IMG/VR virus record: IMGVR_UViG_3300029473_000215
Origin: a virus
Lineage: Duplodnaviria > Heunggongvirae > Uroviricota > Caudoviricetes
Direction: 5' to 3' (one strand)
Length of the DNA: 17,382 nt
Shown: positions 1 to 16,912 of the stretch, in pieces
How positions within the stretch are numbered: the stretch's first letter is position 1
How the letters are laid out: each line of letters opens with the position of its first letter
Made by a program: the position numbers and the translations under genes
Notes under the pieces: generated by a model
The model's database searches: none
Told to the model about the DNA's origin: nothing
The model's input: the letters and a program-made list of their open reading frames with translations, nothing else

Positions 1-1338
1 ATGCGTCAGAGAGAGCTTGCAGCCACCGCTAAGGCCTTCATGTTGGATAGGCCTGAAGTCTCACTACAGGAGCTTACAGAGCATCTCCGGTCTATGGCTG
101 AGCAGTTCCTGACAGACGCTAGTGACGATTACTGGAATGGACTTGAGGTCGCTACTTTGGTCGACGAGAAGTCCAACCTGAGGGAGCTAGCCGCTACGCA
201 AGCATTGAGTCTGGACCAGCAGAAGGGCATAAGGTTAGCGCTTGAAGTCCTGACCGCAGCACAGCAGAGGGTAGACACTGGTGATACCTCTGGTCTGATT
301 GATATTGTGATGAATAACCCTACGGATTACTCAACTATAGGCGACTCTACGTCAATTCTGAAGAATGAGCAGGGGGGTAGACCAGCAGTTTTCACACAGG
401 AGCGCCAACCTGAGGTCGCTATCTGTAGTTTTTCTGAGCTTGTGTCCTCGCTGCTGGCTGAGAAGGTCCAGACCCTGAAGTCCTCCAGCTACAAGGACCT
501 GTCGTCCTCACTGAATACCGTCTCTCGGTTCTTACCTGAAAACATGGACCTGATGTCCCGCTCTGAGTGGCTGGCTGTCAGGGACTCCATGCTGGCTGCT
601 GAGGTGAGACCATCGACAATCAACAAGCTGCTGACTAAAGCGAAGATGTGTCTTGATTACGGTCTGATGAATGGACAGCTTGAGGGCCGCAACCCTATTG
701 AACGGATGAAGCTGACCAAGGATATCGACTCCAAGCGCAGGGCGTTCACAGACGAGGAGCTGGAGAGACTTCTGGTCCGTGTTGAGTCTGAGTATCAGTT
801 CACACGACACACGGCTCACACGACCTCTGAGGCCCGTAGATGGGCGTCTCTGGTGTCTGTGGTCACTGGCGCTCGGTCTGCTGAGGTCTGCCACCTGACT
901 AAACGTGACATTGTAACCTTGGACAATGGGCTGGTCTGTATCGACATCAATGAAGATGGGGACGGGAAGTCTGTGAAGAACAAACATTCAGTCCGACTTG
1001 TGCCGTTGACCGATGGGGCCTGTGGTCTTGACCTGAAGTCCTTCCTCGAATGGGTAGACATGCAGCCTGACGAGGGTCCTCTCTTCGGGATGACTCCAAG
1101 CGCATACTCTAGCTGGTTTAACTCAAGGGTCATGACTGAAGCTCTGGGAGACGCTACGGATGTCTCTCTCCACAGTCTGAGGCACTGGCTAGCGACCAGA
1201 ATGAAAGAGCGTGGAGTCAATCTGGTGGACGCTCAGGGCATCTTAGGTCACAGCAGTCAGTCCATTACGTATGACCTGTACGGGAAAGGACATGCAGTCC
1301 AGAGACTCGCAGATGCATTGGCTGTGACGTTTGGTTAA
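1..1338 (+). CDS. Tyrosine-type site-specific recombinase (phage integrase family), 445 aa
   Basis: C-terminal catalytic motifs visible in translation: TGARSAEV (box I Arg), HSLRHW (His-x-x-Arg), LGHSSQSITYDLYGKG (conserved His and catalytic Tyr). ATG sits at window position 1, so the true N-terminus could lie upstream. Confidence 0.7.
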   Translation: MRQRELAATAKAFMLDRPEVSLQELTEHLRSMAEQFLTDASDDYWNGLEVATLVDEKSNLRELAATQALSLDQQKGIRLALEVLTAAQQRVDTGDTSGLIDIVMNNPTDYSTIGDSTSILKNEQGGRPAVFTQERQPEVAICSFSELVSSLLAEKVQTLKSSSYKDLSSSLNTVSRFLPENMDLMSRSEWLAVRDSMLAAEVRPSTINKLLTKAKMCLDYGLMNGQLEGRNPIERMKLTKDIDSKRRAFTDEELERLLVRVESEYQFTRHTAHTTSEARRWASLVSVVTGARSAEVCHLTKRDIVTLDNGLVCIDINEDGDGKSVKNKHSVRLVPLTDGACGLDLKSFLEWVDMQPDEGPLFGMTPSAYSSWFNSRVMTEALGDATDVSLHSLRHWLATRMKERGVNLVDAQGILGHSSQSITYDLYGKGHAVQRLADALAVTFG

Positions 1339-1487
1339 GTGACTGAAAGTATTAGCAACCACACTAAACTATCACTGTAGGGACTTCATCCCGCCTCTGG
1401 TCCTATGCGTAGCGTCCATGCGGGAGCCACCCAACTTAACTTTCAGCATCACTCATCCACTTTCACCATTACACGGAGGTATCCATC

Positions 1488-2222
1488 ATGGGCCGACCAG
1501 CCAAGCCACTAGACCGAATCAAACTGTACGACCATTACACCTTTGACCCAACCATTCCTCAGCTACTCCGAGTCAAGACACCTTACGGCCAATCTAAACG
1601 CGCCACAGGAGAGCCTGTTAGCTTCTATGTGCATCAAAATGGCTATGCCTCTGTCTCTGTACTGGGTAAGCGCTATCGTCGCTCCAGAGTCATCTACAGC
1701 CTGTGTAAGGGTCACATCCCTGAGGGAATGTTCGTTGACCATATCGACGGTAACCGACTCAATGACCATCCTGACAACCTGCGCCTAGTTACACCACAGC
1801 AGAACCAGTGGAACAGAGACAACCTTGGAGGCAAACTTCAGAACTATTTGCCGAAAGGGATTGACTTTGTAAAAGCTGAGGGTCGCTACAGAGCGCGTAT
1901 TAAGATAGACGGCAAGGTCCGGGCGAGACTCTCTTATGAGGTCAGGGAGCTTATGGTCTGGCTACAGGAACAGCGTCAGAAGCTACACGGTGAATTCGCC
2001 TACGATGGGTGGACCGACTGGACAGAGGCAGACCAGAAGCGAGCTGACGAGCGCTACGAGGTGTCCAAGCCTGAAGGGTATAAACCAAGGAAGCGACGTT
2101 TACCCGGCTACGCTAAGACGCATGATGGACTGAAAGTCTACATTGAGCCTAAAACTGGGCGTCTCTACTTTAAGAAGCTGAACAAGAAGCACTACATCGA
2201 CGAAGAGTCTGTGGTGGTTTGA
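1488..2222 (+). CDS. HNH homing endonuclease with AP2-like DNA-binding domain, 244 aa
   Basis: HNH motif VDHIDGNRLNDHPDNLRLVTPQQNQWN; downstream AP2-like segment GIDFVKAEGRYRARIKIDGKVRARLSYE; GGAGG SD (1475-1479) 8 nt before the ATG. Confidence 0.75.
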   Translation: MGRPAKPLDRIKLYDHYTFDPTIPQLLRVKTPYGQSKRATGEPVSFYVHQNGYASVSVLGKRYRRSRVIYSLCKGHIPEGMFVDHIDGNRLNDHPDNLRLVTPQQNQWNRDNLGGKLQNYLPKGIDFVKAEGRYRARIKIDGKVRARLSYEVRELMVWLQEQRQKLHGEFAYDGWTDWTEADQKRADERYEVSKPEGYKPRKRRLPGYAKTHDGLKVYIEPKTGRLYFKKLNKKHYIDEESVVV

Positions 2223-2369
2223 TGACGGTTGCTAACTTAGAGCGCCTCTGTAGGCCTTGGTGCGTCTGGTCTGTAGAGGAGGGGGCTAAATTATCAGTAT
2301 AGGGAAAATGGCAGACACTACCGCCTCTCCTTCCAGCAATGGGGGGAGGGGGGGCAGACCATAGATGCT

Positions 2370-2418
2370 GACTTAAAGTTAAGACTCTAAGTAAGACTGA
2401 AGTTATGACTCTAAGTTA
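2370..2418. repeat. Four tandem 12-bp direct repeats (consensus aGACTctAAGTtA), followed by an AT-rich tract (2417-2450) and a degenerate fifth copy near 2461-2473
   Basis: Read directly: gacttaaagtta / agactctaagta / agactgaagtta / tgactctaagtt. A G6-A-G7 tract lies just upstream (2341-2354). Confidence 0.7.
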
Positions 2419-2504
2419 ATTATTATCTTCTTATGAAGATTAATATAAGACCTATAGTCCAGACTTAAGTCAGACCTCATTCCTTCTATGTGTCTTCCTC
2501 AACC

Positions 2505-2780
2505 ATGGGGTCGACGATAGCTCCGTCAGTCTCCAGCTCAAAGCATCGGGACCCTGTATACATTGGGTCGTTGCTTGGGCTTCCACCTGCTAAGGAGCCG
2601 GGTCAGTGGCGTAGCTCTCTAAAAGACAAGCTCGTTAAAGATGCAATTTTGCATGTTTTAGCAGGACGCTCCGGTGGTTCGACTCCGGGTCGGCATTCAG
2701 ATTGGCAAAGTAGAAGACACCGAGTCGACACAGTACAAGCGTTTTGCTCAGACCAAAGTTGGAAAGCTACTGAGGAATAG
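2505..2780 (+). pseudogene. Partial duplicate of the KilA-N gene 5' region (KilA-N N-terminal motif fragment); may be a remnant or a small paralog
   Basis: Translation ...PPAKEPGQWRSSLKDKLVKDAILHVLAGRSGGSTPG... matches ...PSAKEPGQWRSSVRTLLDQDANLHVAHGGSTPG... of the 3011-3769 protein. Shares an exact 26-nt block (ctgctaaggagccgggtcagtggcgt) and a 17-nt block (ggtggttcgactccggg); no similarity downstream. Confidence 0.3.
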
Positions 2781-3010
2781 GCAGAAAATCCGCCTTATCC
2801 TTAGGGTCGAAGGACTTAACGGGTCCAACTTTGGGCTGGATTTAAAAGAGGAAACTTTCCTTTATCAACTATGGTCTTCACACGACCTCATCATCAATCC
2901 TCAAGTCTTTCTGTATGTCTCCTGTTGCCTGTGAGTCTCCCTATCGTTGGGGGCTTGAGTAGGCTTTCAGGGTGTGACTTCAGGAGGCATAACAAAAGGA
3001 GTACAACGAT

Positions 3011-3769
3011 ATGTCAACTCAACCCTTAATGAAGCATGAAGTAGTTCTTCCGGTCATCGTTGACGGCTATCACTGGGCCTGTAATCAGGACCGTATGTGG
3101 AACCTGAACGAGCTACATAAAGAGCTTGAGCTTCCATCTGCTAAGGAGCCGGGTCAGTGGCGTTCTAGCGTCAGGACGCTTCTTGACCAAGATGCAAATT
3201 TGCATGTTGCTCATGGTGGTTCGACTCCGGGGACATGGGCTACTGAAGAGGCGGCTATTGCCTATGCGATGTGGGTCTCACCTGATTTCTACCTTAAGGT
3301 CATCCGTGCTTTCATCGCTTTACGTAACGACAAAGTGTCGGAAGCTAAGGCGCTGGCGCAGGACTCCAAGGAACTTAAGGGTCTCAAGCCTATAGCCCGT
3401 AACTGGCTGGAAAAGCTGGATAACCCGAAGCAGGGCCACACCCTGACAGAGTGTCTTAAGAATCTCGACTTCAGGTTAGGTACAAAGCTGGTATCAGCCA
3501 AGGCTCTTAATGCCGTATTGAAGTCAGGGCGTATAGCTAATCCCTTCTATAGTCGCAAGCTGGACGGTCGAGGACAGCCTGTATTTGACATCTCATCAGG
3601 TGGCTGGATGACCAGCTTCAATCCTAAGGGTCTGGAGAACGGCTATTACCGTCTTCAGGATAACCACTATAACGGTCAGGAGGGGCTTAAGGTCCTCACC
3701 AAGGGTTACGAGTGGCTTAAGTCCAACAAGGTCGAGCTGGTTCGTCTGTGCGCTAAGGGAGGACTCTAA
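3011..3769 (+). CDS. KilA-N domain protein, 252 aa
   Basis: KilA-N/APSES-like signature ...HGGSTPGTWATEEAAIAYAMWVSPDFYLKVIRAF; SD aaaaggag 10 nt upstream of the ATG. Confidence 0.7.
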   Translation: MSTQPLMKHEVVLPVIVDGYHWACNQDRMWNLNELHKELELPSAKEPGQWRSSVRTLLDQDANLHVAHGGSTPGTWATEEAAIAYAMWVSPDFYLKVIRAFIALRNDKVSEAKALAQDSKELKGLKPIARNWLEKLDNPKQGHTLTECLKNLDFRLGTKLVSAKALNAVLKSGRIANPFYSRKLDGRGQPVFDISSGGWMTSFNPKGLENGYYRLQDNHYNGQEGLKVLTKGYEWLKSNKVELVRLCAKGGL

Positions 3770-3770
3770 G

Positions 3771-3944
3771 ATGATTGACCCGCGCACACCTGAGGGCCGC
3801 ATGACTCTCCGTTACCGTGGCTATCGGACTGAAGTCCTCCTCAGAGAGCTTGGTCTAGACCCGGAAGATGAGACCCGCCAGCACCAATCCCGAGACGAGC
3901 TAATAGCCCAACTGGTCGCTATGAAACTGTCGCTAGCAAGCTAG
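3771..3944 (+). CDS. Small hypothetical protein, 57 aa (below the ORF-track length cutoff)
   Basis: ATG one nucleotide after the KilA-N stop (TAAgATG); GGAGG at 3758-3762, 8 nt upstream; uninterrupted frame to TAG at 3942-3944; translation MIDPRTPEGRMTLRYRGYRTEVLLRELGLDPEDETRQHQSRDELIAQLVAMKLSLAS. Confidence 0.45.
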   Translation: MIDPRTPEGRMTLRYRGYRTEVLLRELGLDPEDETRQHQSRDELIAQLVAMKLSLAS

Positions 3945-4081
3945 CTGTCTCCTAACCGTTAGTAGCTCACCTACTCAATACCTGATTTTAAAACCTTTTG
4001 AGATGACCGATGCGGGGAGACCCGTAGGCATAACTGTGTCTGCGATACCGATAGTCTCAACTCTCAATAGGAGTACACCTT

Positions 4082-4573
4082 ATGTTATTCAACAACAACG
4101 ACTGGAAACTGTCAGTCACCGACATCAATCTCTACGAGAATACTGTGAGTCTGGACGGTCAGTCCTATCCGTTGTCGCTCGCTATCAAGACCCTCATTCC
4201 GGGCTACCTGTCCGGCCTGCCAGCCACCAGCCGTGAGTCTATGGAGCTACTGGAAGCTCTGGCTGAAGCTGGCGTGACCATTGGTAACTTCTTCAGTAAT
4301 GACCTGATGACCGCCTACCAACGCCGCCAGATGAATAAGCGTGTCGAGGCTGAGCGTATCGCTAAAGAGCTGGCGTCTCAGAAAGAGCGTACCCGCGAAA
4401 TGTTCATGACCGAAGACGAATGGCAGAAAGAGTTACAACGCCGCGAACAGGTCAAAGCTGAACGCCGGACCTATGGTGAGAACCTCCGCAGCGCTACCCA
4501 TTCCGCTGGTCGTTCCCGTGCCGCTATTGTCGCTGACCTTGAGTCAGGCGGTAACTGGCTGGACAGCCTGTAA
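4082..4573 (+). CDS. Hypothetical protein, 163 aa, with charged, probably helical C-terminal half (scaffold-like is a guess)
   Basis: AGGAG SD upstream of the ATG; C-terminal region rich in E/R/K/Q heptad-like runs (RRQMNKRVEAERIAKELASQKERTREMF...QKELQRREQVKAERR). No family recognised. Confidence 0.6.
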   Translation: MLFNNNDWKLSVTDINLYENTVSLDGQSYPLSLAIKTLIPGYLSGLPATSRESMELLEALAEAGVTIGNFFSNDLMTAYQRRQMNKRVEAERIAKELASQKERTREMFMTEDEWQKELQRREQVKAERRTYGENLRSATHSAGRSRAAIVADLESGGNWLDSL

Positions 4574-4641
4574 GACTCACAAGTGGTCCTGACCTGATGT
4601 CGGGACCCACGTATCTAAACTAATTTAGGAGATTGATTATT

Positions 4642-5628
4642 ATGACTATGACTAAAGACAGCTATCAGTTCGGCATTGAGCCAGTACGTATCACCGACAC
4701 CGACAACATTCAGGTCAATGAAGGTCTGCCGACTAACGCTGACCCACAGGTCTATGCCCTCCAGTTAGCTAAGACGGTTAAGGCTATGCTGAACGGTGTA
4801 CTTAAAGACGCTCAGGATAACATTCCGTTCCCTGTAGAAGTCCTGCCTACCCGCAATAGCCTGCCTACCCCAATCATCGCCCACACTCTGTCTGACCGCT
4901 CTGTGGTCGTCCCTGTACGCGGTGGTGAGCGACCTGAAGTCGTGACCGCTCCGTCTGGTCAGGAGATTGTGGTAGAGCCTATTGAGCAAGCTATCCTTGT
5001 GTCTCACCAGACCAAGCTATGGGACGTCAAGTCTTCCACTGGTTTCACTCAGGGTACGCTCCAGCAGGACGCTATGAACATCTGTGAGAATGTGGTCCGT
5101 ACCATCAACGCTCGCATGGTTGACGTTCTGGAGTCCTCCAAGCTGCTGAAGACTGTAGAGCTGCCAGTCCTGACTGGAAGCCTGACCACTAAGGCAGACG
5201 CTATCATGGACGCTCTGTACGAGAACACCGAGCCTTCCTTTGGTTCTGAGGTTACTGATTACGGTATCATCGCCCATGAGTCACACCTCAAGGCTCTCTC
5301 CCGTCTGGCTGCTAAGCAGGGCTTCGGTGGTGAAGACGCTATCGTGGATATGCTGGGTACCGACATCGCGTATTACAACGGTGAGGACAAAGGTGTGTTC
5401 ATGCTGGCTAAACGCTTCACGGCCCTGAGCTTCGGCTGCTTCCGTCACGACGGTGAGAATATTACGGTCGTCCTTTCACGTGATGGCGACTCTCAGTCCC
5501 ATGACCTTGAGATTCTCGGTAAAGTGTTCGTTGTCGCTGAAGCTGCTACGACCATCAAGATGGGCACTGGCTCAGCTACTGCCGTCCTGCCTGTAGTCAA
5601 ACGCCTGAGTTTCACTAAGACAAGCTAA
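4642..5628 (+). CDS. Hypothetical protein, 328 aa (possibly structural; unrecognised)
   Basis: Long ORF with AGGAG at 4627-4631, 10 nt before ATG 4642 (the ORF track starts at an upstream TTG, 4633); followed by a strong intrinsic terminator. No motif recognised. Confidence 0.65.
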   Translation: MTMTKDSYQFGIEPVRITDTDNIQVNEGLPTNADPQVYALQLAKTVKAMLNGVLKDAQDNIPFPVEVLPTRNSLPTPIIAHTLSDRSVVVPVRGGERPEVVTAPSGQEIVVEPIEQAILVSHQTKLWDVKSSTGFTQGTLQQDAMNICENVVRTINARMVDVLESSKLLKTVELPVLTGSLTTKADAIMDALYENTEPSFGSEVTDYGIIAHESHLKALSRLAAKQGFGGEDAIVDMLGTDIAYYNGEDKGVFMLAKRFTALSFGCFRHDGENITVVLSRDGDSQSHDLEILGKVFVVAEAATTIKMGTGSATAVLPVVKRLSFTKTS

Positions 5629-5647
5629 CTAACAATAACGACTTATT

Positions 5648-5686
5648 GGTCAGACTTCCGTAACTGGATGTCTGGCCTTTATTTTG
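5648..5686 (+). terminator. Rho-independent terminator after the 328-aa gene
   Basis: GGTCAGAC (5648-5655) pairs with GTCTGGCC (5670-5677) with one G-U pair, inner TCC/GGA pairs, followed by TTTATTTTG. Confidence 0.5.
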
Positions 5687-5728
5687 TACTAGTAATCTAG
5701 TTCATGGGTGCGGAAAGAGGAGGACCTA

Positions 5729-5839
5729 ATGGACCTACACAAAGTCTATCTCGTAGTCTTCCTGCTAAAGCTAGCTCTGGTAGTCGTGCTGATGGTCTGG
5801 CCTAAAGTACGATGGTTTCTGACAGAAAAATGTGAATGA
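5729..5839 (+). CDS. Small hydrophobic peptide, 36 aa, predicted single transmembrane helix (below ORF-track cutoff)
   Basis: GAGGAGGA SD (5717-5724) 5 nt before ATG 5729; translation MDLHKVYLVVFLLKLALVVVLMVWPKVRWFLTEKCE; stop TGA at 5837-5839. Confidence 0.4.
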   Translation: MDLHKVYLVVFLLKLALVVVLMVWPKVRWFLTEKCE

Positions 5840-5940
5840 CCATCTAATACATTGAGCCAGCAGACTTCCCCCCATAGTCCCGCCTCAAGTCCTGACCGAG
5901 GCCACCGGGGGGCCTGACCAGCCGTCTAGACATCCCGTCT

Positions 5941-5974
5941 AATGACACAAGTCTGGCACAAAGAATGACACAAG
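5941..5974. repeat. Two exact 11-bp direct repeats (aatgacacaag) at 5941-5951 and 5964-5974, 57-90 bp from the island/chromosome junction
   Basis: Read directly from sequence. Confidence 0.6.
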
Positions 5975-5982
5975 GTCTTGAC

Positions 5983-7440
5983 TCAATGCAGGACCTCAGG
6001 CCTACTAAGGGTCCGCTTCAAGTCCTTGAAGTTCCAGATGAACTTAATGGGCACATCCAGTTTATCTTTGCCCCGGACGCCGTCGCGGATTGCCGTCATT
6101 TTGGGGCCATGATCGATAGCATCTGTCCAGCTGAAGCAGGAAATTGACGTTTTGACCGGATTATCCAGCACCGGCAGGCGCTCTATGGTAATGGTATAGG
6201 TCGATTCACGCGCGCCACTATTTCCGCCGCTGATGCCGACATTGCCCGTCAGAATAGGCAACATAGCAATAGCGCGTGCGGTCAGCTCGCCGTTTGCCTG
6301 GCGTTGTGGCCCCCAGCCCTGGCAGGTATAAGCGGGTTTTGCTGTGCCAATTTCACGCGCCAGTTTGATGATACGGTCCACCGGGATACCGGTAATTTGC
6401 GAAGCCCACTGCGGCGTTTTCGCTGTTTTATCGTCACCTTCACCAAGAATATAGGCTTTATAGTGACCATTTTTGGGTGCATCTGCGGGTAAGGTTTTTT
6501 CGTCATAGCCGACGCAGTATTTATCGAGAAAAGGTTGATCAACGAGATTTTCGTTAATCAATACCCAGGCAATACCCGCAACCAGCGCGGCATCGGTGCC
6601 CGGGCGAATAGGAAGCCATTCATCTTCACGACCAGCAGCCGTATCGGTATATCGCGGATCGATAACAATCATTTTGGCGTTCGATTTCTCGCGCGCTTTT
6701 TCAAGAAGATAAGTGATGCCACCGCCGCTCATGCGGGTTTCTGCCGGGTTGTTACCAAACATCACGACCAGCTTGCTGTTTTCAATATCCGTGGTGCTGT
6801 TGCCATCATTACTGCCGTAGGTGTAGGGCATGGCACAGGAAATTTGCGCAGTGCTGTAGGAGCCATACTGGTTGAGTGAACCGCCGTAGCAGTTCATCAG
6901 GCGTTTGACCGCCGAGGCTGATGGCGAAGAGCGGGTCATATTGCCGCCAACAATCCCCGAAGAGTACTGAATATATACAGCCTCATTGCCATATTGTTCG
7001 ACGGTTTTTTTCAGACTACTGGCGATAGTATCCAGGGCTTCATCCCAGCTAATCCGTTCGAATTTGCCTTCACCGCGTTTACCCACGCGTTTCATTGGGT
7101 AATTCAAGCGATCGGGATGATTAATACGCCGGCGGATGGAGCGACCGCGCAAACAGGCGCGTACTTGATGATTGCCATACTCGTCGTTGCCGGTGTTGTC
7201 AGTTTCCACCCAGATCACTTCATTATCTTTAACATGTAGACGAAGTGCACAGCGGCTACCACAGTTGACGGAACAGGCACCCCAGACCACTTTCTCGCTG
7301 GCCTGTTGTACCGCTGCCGCTGCACTGCGTAGGGTGAACGGTAAAGAAAAACCGCCTGCAGCCAGCGCCAGAGAACCTATCGCGGTAGATTTAACGAGTG
7401 TTCTGCGGCTGATGCCCACCATTCGTTCATTTTTGGACAT
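5983..7440 (-). pseudogene. ynfE: 3'-truncated ynfE (DmsA-family molybdopterin oxidoreductase, Tat-secreted): about 470 native codons plus a 15-codon foreign tail
   Basis: N-terminus MSKNERMVGISRRTLVKSTAIGSLALAAG (twin-arginine signal) and body match E. coli YnfE/DmsA from memory. Homology ends after ...DVPIKFIWN (codon at 6033-6031), then FKDLKRTLSRPEVLH-stop from island DNA. Full-length protein is about 800 aa. Confidence 0.85.
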
Positions 7441-12801: not shown

Positions 12802-14082
12802 TTAATTTTTCATTGCTTCGTTATGGGGCATGGTTGGGGCAAACTCGCTTAACTGTGTATTTAACAAAGCTACCTGTGCATTATTGTTTTCAGACATCCA
12901 TTTTCCGTATACCTGAAATACCATTTGCGCATCTGCATGGCCCATCTGGTTTGCTATAAATGCCGGGTTAGCACCAGCTGTCAGCGACCAGCAGGCATAA
13001 GTATGTCTCGACTGATATGATTTTCGATGGCGGAGTCCGGCACGTTTTATCGCTGCGTCCCACATCTGCCTTATTGAGTCAACGGTAAAATGGTCACCAT
13101 AATTTTTTACTCCCGCTGACACTTCAGGTTGAAAAACAAAGGTGCATTTTTGTTTTTCTGTTCTGCCATACTCTCTGAGGTGAACATCAATGATATGCTC
13201 TTTGCTCAGTCTCGTTAATGTCATCTGACTCCGGAGAGCGTCGATTGCTGGCTTAATAAGATGAATGACCCGATTGGTTCCCGCCTGTGTTTTTGGTACC
13301 GTGAAACGGTCTTTTGCTAAATTTCTCCTGATCATCATTGTTCCATTTTTCAGATCTATGTCCTCCCATCCAAGTGCACACAGCTCACCAGGGCGAACGC
13401 CAGTATAAACAGAAACACACCATAAATTTTTTGCTTGCTGATTTCTGCACGCATCGATAAGACGGATAAATTCCTCCCGCGAAAGAGGATCCGGAATGGT
13501 TCTTGATTCCTTTAATGGCGAGATCCCCTTAAACGGATTATCTGGCAGGTAACCGTTATCAACACCAAACTGGAACACGGCGTTAAGATTTGTCATGTAA
13601 TTATTTACAGTTACAGCCGATCTTCCTGGTTGTGTAACAATATAGTTACTTTTGGGGATCTGGTATCCAGTCAGTAGCTCTTTACGAACCTCCAGTAATT
13701 TTTCTTTATTAATCGATGAGGCAAGATTTTTTTCACCGATTATGCTCAGGATATTTTTGATGACGGCACGGTATGTGTTGAGTGATGTTTTGGCGACTTC
13801 AGTTTCTTTCAGTGCCAGAAATTTTTCAGCCAGTTCTTTTATGGTTAAATCTTGTCGGGCCTCACCAAATTTTTCCAGATTGCGTGAGGAGGGAAACTGT
13901 TTTGCATAGTCGAAAACACCAGTTTTTATTGCGTAACAAACAGAGGAGCGTAGTTCACCTGCAACGCGCCTGTTTTTTGCTGTGTCAGGAACCCCCAGAT
14001 TTTCCCTGACTCTTACGCCTTTATAGACAAACCAGATACGTAATTTCCCTCCATGGTTTTCCACGCCTGTCGGATATTTCAT
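12802..14082 (-). CDS. Lambdoid phage integrase (tyrosine recombinase with N-terminal arm-binding domain), about 426 aa
   Basis: N-terminus MKYPTGVENHGGKLRIWFVYKGVRVRE resembles Rac IntR-type arm-binding domains; C-terminus carries RHRKSYQSRHTYAC...GHADAQMVFQVYGKW. Start chosen at 14082; an alternative ATG is at 14097. Confidence 0.9.
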   Translation of the reverse strand: MKYPTGVENHGGKLRIWFVYKGVRVRENLGVPDTAKNRRVAGELRSSVCYAIKTGVFDYAKQFPSSRNLEKFGEARQDLTIKELAEKFLALKETEVAKTSLNTYRAVIKNILSIIGEKNLASSINKEKLLEVRKELLTGYQIPKSNYIVTQPGRSAVTVNNYMTNLNAVFQFGVDNGYLPDNPFKGISPLKESRTIPDPLSREEFIRLIDACRNQQAKNLWCVSVYTGVRPGELCALGWEDIDLKNGTMMIRRNLAKDRFTVPKTQAGTNRVIHLIKPAIDALRSQMTLTRLSKEHIIDVHLREYGRTEKQKCTFVFQPEVSAGVKNYGDHFTVDSIRQMWDAAIKRAGLRHRKSYQSRHTYACWSLTAGANPAFIANQMGHADAQMVFQVYGKWMSENNNAQVALLNTQLSEFAPTMPHNEAMKN

Positions 14083-14116
14083 TTCAACTTCTCTCATTAG
14101 TTAGTGTGGCTTTTAG

Positions 14117-14440: not shown

Positions 14441-16912
14441 TTAAGAATCAGCCTGACTCGGGATCAGTTTTTGCCAGATAACTGAAACGTATTTTGCCTG
14501 GTAACGGGCGTCGTCAAGTGCATTATGGCGCTCACCTTCGAATGGAATAGCCGTTCTGGCATCGAAGTCTATGGCTTTCCCCAGCTCAACGATTGTGCGT
14601 ACATCGCGATCGTTGTAGTAACGCCACGGGCAGGGGATCCCCTGCCGTTCGTATGAACGGCGCAAAATCGTGTTGTCGAAGTTGGCTCCATTTCCCCAAA
14701 CCTGAACAAAAAATTCACCGGAGTTTTCGTCGATAAATTCCCGCAATTGTAACAGTGCATCATCTAACGGGATTTCATCGGTCATAATGGCAGATTGCGC
14801 TTCGCGTGATTGCTTAAGCCACCATTTAATGGTGTCCCGATCAATGACTCCGCCAGCAGTTTCCAGATCGATAGTCTTACTAAATTCCGGTCCCATATCT
14901 CCGGTTTGCGGATCGAAAAATATTGCACCTATTGAGATGATCGGGGCATCAGGATTTTTTCCCATGGTTTCAAGGTCGATCATTAGATGGTCACACGTCC
15001 TGCTGGTGGATGTGATTTCGTGATGACCGTTCACCTTAATTGGGTGATCTGCCGTCTCGCCAGTTTCATTATCGCTATTGTGATGCTGATTGCCGCCAGT
15101 GTTCTCCTTGTGTGGATGTTCAGCGCCTTCCATTTCCTCCGGATCATCTTCCTGAACTTCAACCTGATACTCTTCATCGAATGTTTCTTGGTATGTTGCG
15201 TCGCCCATCACCGCGCCACAATCAGGGCAGTTGCCGCCGCCGGTCTGACCGCAGGCGGTGCAGACTTTTTCCACTTCCTGTTGCGCCACTGGTTCAGGCT
15301 GTTTCGTTTCTGGCTCGTTTTGTAACGCATTTGGACTGTTTTGTTCCGCTTTTTGGTAGTTCCGTTCCGATTCATGCTGGTTCTGGTTCACAGAATCGCG
15401 GGTCTGGATCCCCTTAACCCATTTCGGATCATTCGGGTCACTAATCCCTTCAACAAATTCACCACGTGATGCAGCAAGCAACTTATCGGCGTCAGGCTGG
15501 CTGATATTGGCTGCCTGCATAATTTTGTTTACTTCGTCAGCGGTAACTTTTATCGGCTCTGGTTGTTCTGAATCTTCAGCGGTATCTACATTTTGCGGTA
15601 AGCCCGTGTATGTGCCATTTTTTCGGGCAAAATATTCTTCTTTTGTGATTTCAGTGGCGCCAGCAGCCAGTGCCTTATCCAGACCAGAAAGTTTGTTTGC
15701 GCGACCGTATTTTTCTCCGTCCTTATCTGCGAAGAGGAAATAGAACGGCCCCTCACGCTCTACAGATGGTTCAGCTTCCGGCGCGGTTTCATTTTTTGGG
15801 ATATCAGATACCTCAGTTTCCACTGTATCAGTTTGTGTTTCTGATGACTGGAGAACATCAACAGTGCCCAGGTCTGTTTCTTCATTCTCAAACACGCCCT
15901 TTGTCGTCAGGTATTCGCAGATATATTTGTTCAGTGCTACGGGATCTTTGTGAATGTCGATCGGACGCTCACGGACAAGGCCAAAAATAGTTTGGCGGTC
16001 GTAGCGAAGGGCATCAGGCTGTTTGCGCATTGATGCCGAGATACGCTTCCAGTCTTCGCGGTCGTTGTCGATAACTTCTTTTTTTGCCCAGCGATGGATG
16101 CTGCCGTCAATGTTTCCGGCATCCACATCACCAGGCCAGAGAGCGTAGGCCAGTTCGTCATCCAGTGTTTTCCATGTCTGCTTGTATTCGCGATGAATGG
16201 CAGCAATGACCGGGCTGATTTTTCCTGTTGAATTTTCAGTGTACTGTTGATTGGCTCTGGCGCGGGCGAGATCAACAACAGACGTGTATTTTCCGGTTTC
16301 CTTGCGTTCACCTTCGCGACGTTTTTTCCAGATGCGCATCTCTGCCTGAATTTCGGGCCATTTAGCACCAGGAATACATTTATGCTTAACCCACCCAATG
16401 GCGTGCAACTTAAGCTCCGGATACATGGCGTTAACTTCTGGCATTTTCATCAACGCTTCAACGATATGTCCGTCGAATGTTGCCATGTCTTCCTGCAACA
16501 ATTCCTGTGCGCTAATAACCATATCAACGGTGATGTTTTCACATGTGTCGAACTTAACCATGACAGCGTTCTGTACTTCAGGGGCCAGCTTGTCAAAAGT
16601 GACGTTCATCGGATCGGATTCAGTCTCAACCGGGACAAAAGAAGCAGACTCCTCATCCCAGCGGTTTTCCTGCATATATTCAGCATCCCATGAATCGAGG
16701 GCAGGGCGGGGTATGCCAGGTTTATCCTCGCAGACAATAAATTTATAAGCGCAGTCCTGAGCAGCCGGATAATGTTCCAGGAATTGCCAGTGAAATTTTG
16801 CTCGAGCACGGCGTTCGTCGCCAGCTTCAATGGCTGTGGCTACAGCCACAGCGCCTTCTTCCCTTGTTGCCAGTTCGTCAGGAATAGCGGCGCAAATAAA
16901 GACTTTACTCAT
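14441..16912 (-). CDS. Exodeoxyribonuclease VIII-like protein with C-terminal DnaQ-like (DEDDh) 3'-5' exonuclease domain, 823 aa
   Basis: Central segment KLLAASRGEFVEGISDPNDPKWVKGIQTRD and Cys4 cluster CTACGQTGGGNCPDCGAVMGDATYQETF match RecE from memory; C-terminus has DEDDh motifs MIDLETMG, WGNGANFDNTIL and HNALDDARYQ instead of the RecE PD-(D/E)xK nuclease; GAGG SD upstream of the ATG. Confidence 0.85.
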   Translation of the reverse strand: MSKVFICAAIPDELATREEGAVAVATAIEAGDERRARAKFHWQFLEHYPAAQDCAYKFIVCEDKPGIPRPALDSWDAEYMQENRWDEESASFVPVETESDPMNVTFDKLAPEVQNAVMVKFDTCENITVDMVISAQELLQEDMATFDGHIVEALMKMPEVNAMYPELKLHAIGWVKHKCIPGAKWPEIQAEMRIWKKRREGERKETGKYTSVVDLARARANQQYTENSTGKISPVIAAIHREYKQTWKTLDDELAYALWPGDVDAGNIDGSIHRWAKKEVIDNDREDWKRISASMRKQPDALRYDRQTIFGLVRERPIDIHKDPVALNKYICEYLTTKGVFENEETDLGTVDVLQSSETQTDTVETEVSDIPKNETAPEAEPSVEREGPFYFLFADKDGEKYGRANKLSGLDKALAAGATEITKEEYFARKNGTYTGLPQNVDTAEDSEQPEPIKVTADEVNKIMQAANISQPDADKLLAASRGEFVEGISDPNDPKWVKGIQTRDSVNQNQHESERNYQKAEQNSPNALQNEPETKQPEPVAQQEVEKVCTACGQTGGGNCPDCGAVMGDATYQETFDEEYQVEVQEDDPEEMEGAEHPHKENTGGNQHHNSDNETGETADHPIKVNGHHEITSTSRTCDHLMIDLETMGKNPDAPIISIGAIFFDPQTGDMGPEFSKTIDLETAGGVIDRDTIKWWLKQSREAQSAIMTDEIPLDDALLQLREFIDENSGEFFVQVWGNGANFDNTILRRSYERQGIPCPWRYYNDRDVRTIVELGKAIDFDARTAIPFEGERHNALDDARYQAKYVSVIWQKLIPSQADS

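Follow-up and report, generated by a model that had tools for sequence, protein, structure and literature searches.

We analyzed IMG/VR record IMGVR_UViG_3300029473_000215, a stretch of 17,382 nucleotides (nt) that is referred to here as the window. A ~6.3-kb integrative island lies at its left end, inserted in ynfE. The island contains an intact KilA-N gene, and a partial second copy of KilA-N coding sequence is present just upstream of it. In phages, satellites, and large DNA viruses, few domains are as common as KilA-N or as poorly understood. A preliminary description of the window had read the upstream copy as a partial duplication of the 5' region of the resident gene, and it had reported a palindrome in the downstream copy. 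The best explanation overall, which we hold with good confidence, is that the upstream copy is a dead chimeric scar and that the palindrome is a dyad-symmetric nucleic acid element conserved in KilA-N genes. The locus contains the following features.

2573 to 2800, recombination scar of 228 nt, between the HNH endonuclease gene and the intact KilA-N gene.
2573 to 2677, plus strand, fragment of a foreign KilA-N allele (allele B, gene nt 114 to 218), the left part of the scar.
2573 to 2577, plus strand, left junction, a GCTTG microhomology between HNH-type-island intergenic DNA and KilA-N allele B.
2641 to 2654, plus strand, degenerate copy of the dyad, ATGCAATTTTGCAT, with A changed to T at 2647.
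2673 to 2689, plus strand, middle junction, the 17-mer GGTGGTTCGACTCCGGG, identical to 3215 to 3231 of resident allele A.
2685 to 2800, plus strand, fragment (nt 93 to 208) of the gene for a hypothetical protein of 165 amino acids (aa), WP_044068512.1.
3011 to 3769, plus strand, intact resident KilA-N gene, allele A, 252 aa.
3115 to 3285, plus strand, A/B allelic cassette of ~170 nt, encoding helix 53-60, a turn, and beta-hairpin 64-77.
3188 to 3209, no strand assigned, 22-nt dyad CAAGATGCAAATTTGCATGTTG, with a perfect 14-mer at 3192 to 3205 and its center between 3198 and 3199, in the Asn63 codon.

The two copies are collinear and in the same orientation. They share three blocks, which pairwise comparison placed where they had been reported. 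Block 1 (2573 to 2612 versus 3124 to 3163) is identical at 38 of 40 positions, including 26 nt without a mismatch. Block 2 (2638 to 2657 versus 3189 to 3208) is identical at 19 of 20 positions, and block 3 (2673 to 2689 versus 3215 to 3231) at 17 of 17. The offsets are 551, 551, and 542 nt, so a 9-nt (three-codon) in-frame insertion or deletion separates the copies. Both translate to ..AKEPGQWRSS..DA(N/I)LHV..GGSTPG, and the common peptide ..AKEPGQWRSS..LHV..GGSTPG of the preliminary description was seen in each. The perfect 14-bp palindrome was also found as described. It reads ATGCAAATTTGCAT at 3192 to 3205, and its upstream variant at 2641 to 2654 is the ATGCAATTTTGCAT listed above. No further site within 2 mismatches of the palindrome occurs in the 17.4-kb window, where 0.10 would be expected by chance.

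The downstream copy lies in an intact KilA-N gene, as had been claimed. The product of 3011 to 3769 matches the KilA-N domain (PF04383) with an E value of 1.3e-9 and 38.3 bits against a cut-off of 23.8, over profile positions 14 to 104 of 107. An identical protein is widespread in Escherichia coli islands that do not have the scar. The upstream copy had been called a 5' fragment. It is an internal piece, codons 38 to 73 (gene nt 114 to 218), and it does not contain codons 1 to 37 or the first 113 nt of the gene.

The left part of the scar is closest to a KilA-N allele of other genomes. Positions 2573 to 2677 are 99.0% identical (1 mismatch in 105) to positions 5033 to 5137 of locus L012 and 98.1% identical to 5001 to 5105 of locus L014. 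The identity to resident allele A is 74%, and the claim of a duplicated resident gene does not hold. A search with 2560 to 2830 identified this allele B as the resident KilA-N allele of L012, L013, and ECZP248. The "extra segment" of the preliminary description is present, and it is a fragment of an unrelated gene. Positions 2685 to 2800 are 100% identical over 116 nt to 5338 to 5453 of L014 (ECZP248) and to 6001 to 6116 of L015 (J31), in the gene for the 165-aa protein. In other island variants this gene occupies the place of the C-terminal half of KilA-N, and no homology was found between that half and the 165-aa protein. It follows a truncated KilA-N gene in ECZP248 and an unrelated 171-aa gene in J31.

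The sister islands with the same HNH gene (L011 to L014) are identical to the window through 2577. They are then unrelated to it until ~2800 to 2864. At the left junction, the intergenic DNA reads GGTCGTTGCTTGAGG, allele B reads GGACGCTTGGGCTTCC, and the window reads GGTCGTTGCTTGGGCTTCC. The middle junction is GGTGG/TTCGACT/CCGGG, in which GGTGG is common to allele B and CCGGG is common to the 165-aa gene. The 7-nt TTCGACT between them is not in allele B and matches allele A exactly. At the right junction, CCTTATCC/TTAGGGTCGAAGG, the sequence reverts to the KilA-N leader.

The scar has the makeup of a fragment pseudogene. It consists of internal fragments without a start of their own, its junctions are at 5-nt microhomologies, and the intact parental genes are found elsewhere. 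The parental forms are L012 and L013 for allele B and L014 and L015 for the 165-aa gene. The sole difference from allele B over the 105 nt is the change from A to T at 2647, and this column is A in 46 of 46 homologues (alignment A3, column 24). The change fits lost constraint in a dead fragment, which one substitution cannot prove. At least 21 contigs carry the scar configuration, and the six that were read are 99.97 to 100% identical over 5.9 kb. It is absent from 5,426 complete E. coli genomes. The scar is a single recent event in one clonal lineage. Judged by these matches, the upstream copy is a chimeric, internally deleted relic of two genes and not a duplication of the resident gene.

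ECZP248 has the same collinear order of fragments, allele B and then the 165-aa gene, with 232 nt more separating them. By the simplest history, then, an ECZP248-like module lay upstream of an allele-A module and was later eroded. Recombination of two island variants may have placed the ECZP248-like module (KilA-N-B' plus the 165-aa gene) and the allele-A module in tandem. The redundant upstream module would then have eroded through microhomology-mediated deletions or template switches.

Some observations weigh against this account of the scar. We infer the order of events, since no exact parental genome was found. The allele of the scar parent would read LAGRSGGSTPG, and none of the 119 homologues has this reading. 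The origin of TTCGACT is ambiguous. It may be a patch templated by allele A, or it may come from the TTCGACTC motif of the 165-aa gene, which lies 12 nt upstream within that gene, together with a 12-nt deletion. Gene callers also report an 86-aa open reading frame (ORF) across the scar in 21 contigs, all of them clonal with the window.

The patchy identity of the two copies had been attributed to recombination or conversion between paralogs. Recombination between KilA-N variants is borne out, but the patchiness is an older A/B mosaic. It arises because A and B differ mainly in one cassette that holds two shared blocks. About 51 of the 60 A/B differences of the gene fall within this cassette, and the rest of the gene and the leader are almost identical. 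The blocks kept by both alleles are the PAKEPGQWR codons and 20 nt around the palindrome. As for conversion between the two copies themselves, only the 17-mer at 2673 to 2689 hints at exchange within this genome.

The Neisseria pilS/pilE and Borrelia vls systems offer a second view of the scar. They too have a promoterless partial copy, with identity blocks among variable stretches, upstream of an expressed gene. The fragment would then be a silent donor cassette, kept for conversion that switches the helix-wing cassette of KilA-N, and the identity blocks would act as homology anchors. It spans about two thirds of the A/B cassette and carries the identity blocks of 38/40 (26 nt exact), 19/20, and 17 nt. 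The 17-mer at 2673 to 2689 is typical of allele A inside a B-type fragment and is a possible conversion tract, and the family shows fine-scale mosaicism. We nevertheless find a silent cassette improbable. Those systems have several promoterless cassettes. Here there is one fragment in one clonal lineage, with none in the other island variants examined, no cassette array, and no sign of switching. The fragment is fused to a piece of an unrelated gene, its dyad is damaged at an invariant base, and no recombination-stimulating machinery was identified.

Two ORFs cross the scar.

2490 to 2780, plus strand, 96-aa ORF with a GTG start, an accidental fusion that joins intergenic DNA to the allele-B fragment (in frame) and to the 165-aa-gene fragment (out of frame).
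2674 to 2934, plus strand, 86-aa ORF with a GTG start, with the 165-aa-gene fragment in its native frame for ~42 codons and then the KilA-N leader.

Either ORF might encode a small protein, such as a KilA-N "decoy" or a shortened 165-aa protein. Both are open, the 86-aa ORF has been called in the 21 contigs, and the 96-aa ORF keeps the frame of the allele-B fragment. This explanation is very improbable. The 96-aa ORF begins in DNA that is intergenic in the sister islands (2490 to 2577 is unannotated in L011 to L014, and PGAP annotates nothing in their equivalent DNA), and it reads the 165-aa-gene fragment out of frame. It has only 35 of the ~100 residues of the KilA-N domain and is not recognized by the KilA-N profile. 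It has no Pfam or PHROG match and was never called as a gene in the public collection. The 86-aa ORF has no family match and is probably non-functional. No Shine-Dalgarno sequence is visible ahead of either GTG. A scan of 2150 to 4100 found no sigma-70-like promoter and no terminator-like site at either dyad copy. All of the copies read are clonal, so they hold no variation in which purifying selection could show. We consider the scar to be dead, with some residual uncertainty; it has no detectable start codon or promoter of its own and no intact domain. It is a caution against treating the 86-aa and 96-aa ORFs as genes in annotation. In-place tandem duplication of the 5' part of the resident gene, followed by divergence, is barely credible. 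The copies are 551 nt apart, collinear, and in the same orientation, but allele B of other genomes matches the upstream copy at 99% and the adjacent allele A matches it at 74%, whereas a tandem duplicate would be most similar to its neighbor. The first 113 nt of the gene are also missing from the upstream copy, which runs into a fragment of a different gene.

The scar resembles the illegitimate-recombination scars of mosaic phage, satellite, and island genomes. These also consist of internal fragments joined at 4- to 6-nt microhomologies, between intact genes and in one lineage. No difference is essential; the scar here joins two genes and includes a copy of a conserved cis-element. In itself it is ordinary, and it shows that sister islands swap modules and leave debris. 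Rfam gave only a sub-threshold chrB-a match at 2502 to 2577 (23 bits versus a gathering threshold of 43.9, E value of 0.96), which is most likely chance. A tRNA origin of GGTTCGACTCC, which resembles a tRNA T-arm, was rejected; ARAGORN finds no tRNA in 1 to 7000.

The palindrome weighs more than the scar. It is a nucleotide element at one position, and its arms change in a compensatory way from E. coli and Pseudomonas islands to distant phages. We retrieved 63 metagenomic loci with peptide patterns outside the palindrome and based the statistics on the 46 distinct sequences. Every KilA-N allele of the island family contains a dyad of 14 to 22 nt centered on AAA/TTT at the same codons, with arms that differ between alleles. 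The arm pairs are ATGCAAA/TTTGCAT, CACGAAA/TTTCGTG, CCGGAAA/TTTCCGG, CCGCAAA/TTTGCGG, CTGCAAA/TTTGCAG, and GGACAAA/TTTGTCC. Further pairs are TGTGGAAA/TTTCCACA and CTTCCGGAAA/TTTCCGGAAG.

Paired cells make up 82% of the dyad columns, versus 59% after shuffling. The covariation score was 0.495, versus 0.147 for shuffled sequences, with none of 500 shuffles as high and slid controls at 0.10 to 0.16; the aligned sequences are related by descent, and the shuffle statistics overstate their independence, which counts against the strength of this result. Double changes at the four inner variable pairs number 22, 20, 8, and 16. The dyad center is the unique best of 275 centers in the codon alignment of the gene, with 83% Watson-Crick pairs. 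The runner-up reaches 52%, and the centers average 25% (standard deviation, 7%).

Codon choice follows the dyad. Asn63 is AAT in 46 of 46 sequences, and codon 62 ends in A in 43 of them. The Ser codon tracks its pairing partner (TCC with CGG, TCT with CAG, and AGT with CAT). Both arms change together within near-identical flanks, as between allele A and the P0008 type. The codons AAA GAT GCA AAT TTG CAT GT occur unchanged in alleles A and B of E. coli and in the Klebsiella, P0051, and Pseudomonas homologues, whose proteins are 50%, 37%, and 36% identical, respectively (the Pseudomonas gene has a guanine-plus-cytosine content of 55%). The codons next to these 20 nt differ at synonymous sites. 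The arms stay complementary despite change and synonymous sites are fixed; the constraint is therefore on the nucleic acid and not on the protein. This makes the palindrome a credible cis site. The earlier proposal of a protein-binding site is upheld to that extent for the resident copy; the copy in the scar is damaged by the change at 2647. The dyad is single-copy per island, with no second allele-specific copy in the 46 loci. Islands without a KilA-N domain have no such dyad. An extension beyond 22 nt (columns 7 to 12) was unsupported.

The dyad also occurs in distant phage KilA-N genes from IMG/VR contigs. At least 7 of 8 pairs form in the equivalent window of 30 of 40 such genes, versus 4 of 153 control windows. 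Many of the phage dyads are perfect 22-mers, including CAAAGCGGGAATTCCCGCTTTG (with CCGG and CAGG variants), CAGTCCTCAGATCTGAGGACTG, and AACTACCGGAATTCCGGTAGTT. The phage contigs L105 to L158 contain perfect 22-nt palindromes with the compensatory variants GCGGGAATTCCCGC, GCCGGAATTCCGGC, and GCAGGAATTCCTGC. Some phage dyads are centered at another codon phase. The position is kept down to ~26 to 30% amino acid identity and in different hosts. P1 kilA and two Vibrio phage KilA-N genes contain near-palindromes, but these are off the aligned position. On these alignments, the palindrome is one instance of a dyad-symmetric element that stands at the same codons in every KilA-N gene of this island family and in the majority of the distant phage genes compared. 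The element appears to be new and unreported in the searchable literature. No paper joining KilA-N with a palindrome was found there, and the paper found for KilA-N and "inverted repeat" concerns something other than the dyad.

The center of the dyad coincides with the midpoint of the A/B cassette (~3200). In the AlphaFold model of the resident protein (predicted local distance difference test score of 80), the dyad codons are predicted to encode the end of helix 53-60, the turn at 61-63, and strand 64-67 of the beta-hairpin, in a helix-plus-wing arrangement. Foldseek returned only weak matches for this model, to DdrC and to the DNA-binding domain of Mbp1 (fungal APSES type). A sequence search of the PDB with the KilA-N profile returned nothing. 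The paper found for KilA-N and "inverted repeat" notes that KilA-N and Bro-N domains are common DNA-binding modules of GIY-YIG homing endonucleases.

The cassette region is a fine mosaic across the 119 homologues. They combine PAKEPGQWRSS or DEKKPYRWDNQ with LKDKLVKDANLHV, VRTLLDQDANLHV, or VRTVLDQARNFVV and with LAGRSGGTL or AHGGSTPGTW, in differing combinations. Rearranged KilA-N genes are frequent in the family, and P0001 (413 aa), P0054, and P0022 are fusions or duplications. P0005 (277 aa, L028 6001 to 6834) contains an in-frame internal duplication, in which a P0008-type and a B-type cassette are joined at GGSTPG/QWRSS. Its single ORF thus contains both CACGAAATTTCGTG and ATGCAAATTTGCAT, two different dyads. 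The cassette segment breaks and rejoins repeatedly in the family. P0001, like P0005, has an in-frame internal duplication.

We tentatively read the dyad as a cis site that acts at the DNA level and moves together with the gene. A symmetric dimer, possibly of KilA-N itself, may bind to it within the gene, which would provide portable autoregulation. The dyad may also be a structure-prone site that seeds local allele shuffling. A cassette centered on the dyad fits both a specificity cassette that carries its own site and dyad-seeded recombination. The three innermost pairs, which a hairpin could not contain, show complementarity in 96%, 87%, and 95% of 55 distinct dyads, and the central step is A/T in 53 of the 55. 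We lean toward symmetry at the DNA level (a symmetric-dimer site or an extrudable or template-switch-prone dyad) over an mRNA hairpin because G:T and A:C mismatches are about equal in the wider set, the central pairs are complementary, there is no Rfam family, and there is no terminator.

Against a DNA-level site stands the excess of G:T over A:C mismatches in the island set (13 versus 5); the 55 distinct dyads, phages included, have 15 and 16. The residues of helix 53-60 and of the wing loop differ strongly among alleles that have ATGCAAATTTGCAT in common, and this speaks against a simple co-evolution of the protein with its site. Freely varying arms that remain complementary are also seen more typically with intra-strand pairing than with a protein operator.

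An mRNA hairpin with a 5-bp stem, an AAUU loop, and three outer pairs could control translation or mRNA decay. We find it unlikely. Its compensatory changes are of every type, as in RNA helices, it is in the minimum-free-energy fold of each allele tested, and it would explain the mismatch excess of the island set. That excess is lost once the phage homologues are added, however, and the central bases that cannot pair are still self-complementary. The z-scores are modest (-0.3 to -2.3), and Rfam has no match at the dyad. About 180 nt separate the element from the start codon, and the ribosome-binding site is thus distant.

Equally doubtful is a functionless quasi-palindrome that perpetuates itself. 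Intra-strand template switching would copy changes from one arm to the other and leave the site prone to rearrangement. Such quasi-palindrome mutagenesis is well documented in E. coli. The perfect 22-mers, the lack of strand asymmetry, and the complementarity close to the center agree with it, as do the concerted arm changes in near-identical flanks (allele A versus the P0008 type) and the many rearrangement junctions in the segment. The encoded residues are in a variable, apparently tolerant part of the protein. A functionless repeat accounts less well for one position retained down to ~26 to 30% identity across hosts or for the fixed A/T center, and no comparable dyad is present elsewhere in the gene. 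The known hotspots in E. coli thyA and in lacZ reporters are similar in length (~14 to 22 nt), in dyad perfection, and in concerted arm change, but they are mutational hotspots in single genes. We know of no description of a quasi-palindrome hotspot conserved in position across a family.

A combined role is more doubtful still. The dyad, at the codons where the putative recognition helix meets the beta-hairpin "wing", would be bound or cut in a symmetric or extruded form, possibly by a KilA-N dimer with autoregulation independent of a promoter. It would also seed short-patch conversion, by which the ~170-nt specificity cassette is shuffled among alleles. The scar and the duplications would then be by-products.

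Cis sites embedded in genes are known from the lambda ori iterons in gene O, P1 oriL in repL, lac O2 in lacZ, and the I-TevI autorepression site, which is similar to the homing site of that enzyme. They share with the dyad a symmetric site within a coding region that is inherited with the gene for a DNA-binding protein. The P1 kilA-repL operon is annotated with an internal origin. The candidate site here differs in that it is a single dyad and not an iteron array, its arms vary freely, and it lies within the N-terminal DNA-binding domain. Should the dyad prove to be bound or cleaved, it would give a direct experimental handle on KilA-N recognition and on the diversification of the variable surface. 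If it is a self-maintaining quasi-palindrome, it would be a clear case in nature in which mutational "concerted evolution" of a dyad has shaped a protein sequence.

Other candidates for the dyad were set aside. An operator with extra copies at promoters was rejected; the 46 loci have no second allele-specific dyad. A cis site essential to the island (ori, pac, or cos) is unlikely because islands without a KilA-N domain have no dyad. A -1 frameshift at A-AAT-TTG was dropped; the phage centers GGAATTCC or CAGATCTG are not slippery, and the arms flank the site and do not follow it. LexA box, CRP, Fis, and Xer/dif sites misfit in spacing or arms across alleles, as compared by eye only. An intrinsic terminator was rejected on the scan result given above.

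The remaining features of the island are as follows.

1 to 1338, plus strand, island tyrosine integrase gene (Pfam Phage_integrase, E value of 2.3e-14).
1488 to 2222, plus strand, HNH_3 endonuclease gene (Pfam HNH_3, E value of 4.9e-15).
6030 to 6044, plus strand, candidate right attachment core AGTTCCAGATGAACT, inside the split ynfE, marking the right end of the island and unique in the window.

The window is E. coli chromosome, with ynfE, ynfD, ynfC, speG, ynfB, ynfA, rspA, and rspB and then a second integrase. In L017, AGTTCCAGATGAACT is a 15-nt direct repeat at both flanks of the island (3009 and 9357), and this gives the island length of ~6.3 kb. The repeat is itself partly palindromic. 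The HNH protein is WP_050486085.1 and is identical in L011 to L014. As variable cargo, it defines an island subtype, and it is the intergenic DNA of this subtype that borders the scar. The KilA-N gene is followed by ORFs of 57, 163, and 331 aa and then by the N-terminal piece of the split ynfE. Island relatives are present in 63 of 5,426 complete E. coli genomes. The preliminary description had asked whether homologous elements carry one copy or two, and most of these relatives carry a single KilA-N copy.

The island is similar to capsid-fold satellites (SaPIbov5 Ccm and capsid-forming phage-inducible chromosomal islands) in its integrase, its small genome, the predicted coiled-coil 163-aa protein, and the HK97-like model of the 331-aa protein. 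The latter model matches HK97-fold capsid proteins, SaPIbov5 Ccm included. The island differs in that it is only ~6.3 kb and has no recognizable terminase, portal, primase, or AlpA/Stl-type regulator. The island core proteins had no Pfam or PHROG match, and PADLOC and NCBIfam were uninformative for the island proteins. A megablast of 2200 to 3800 against phage genomes gave no match.

The slot between the integrase and KilA-N (1339 to 3010 in the window, compared with L001 to L016) holds variable cargo, here the HNH endonuclease. It holds an unknown protein of 155 or 122 aa in most E. coli islands and DUF4145 in Klebsiella and tRNA-Gly islands. IS66, IS3, or IS21 insertions are often found in it. 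Across Gammaproteobacteria and at different integration sites, a gene order recurs that consists of an integrase, a variable gene, KilA-N or a substitute, a small ORF, a DUF6971-like protein of ~140 to 160 aa, and a protein of ~330 to 375 aa. Examples are L031 to L033 (Pseudomonas, nadB 3' end), L026 (Klebsiella), and L016 (E. coli, beside tRNA-Gly).

The short direct repeats AAGACTCTAAGT, ATGACTCTAAGTTA, and GACTTAAGT are clustered in intergenic DNA at 2368 to 2470, downstream of the HNH gene. The cluster is kept in L011 to L014, with one 12-nt unit missing from L012, and may represent an array of iterons or operators. The G-rich run GGGGGGAGGGGGGG at 2340 to 2355 differs in length among sister islands L011 to L013 and could be a slippage-prone tract.

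The island splits ynfE (5983 to 7440, minus strand), and the N-terminal 485-aa piece lies within the window. This gene is listed among those interrupted, or controlled in their integrity, by an integrative element (PMC7192596). Another mobile element lies beyond rspB. It contains the second integrase, which has an Arm-DNA-bind_2 domain (12802 to 14097, minus strand), and an 823-aa protein whose C-terminal domain is of the Rv2179c-like 3'-5' exoribonuclease type (14441 to 16912, minus strand).

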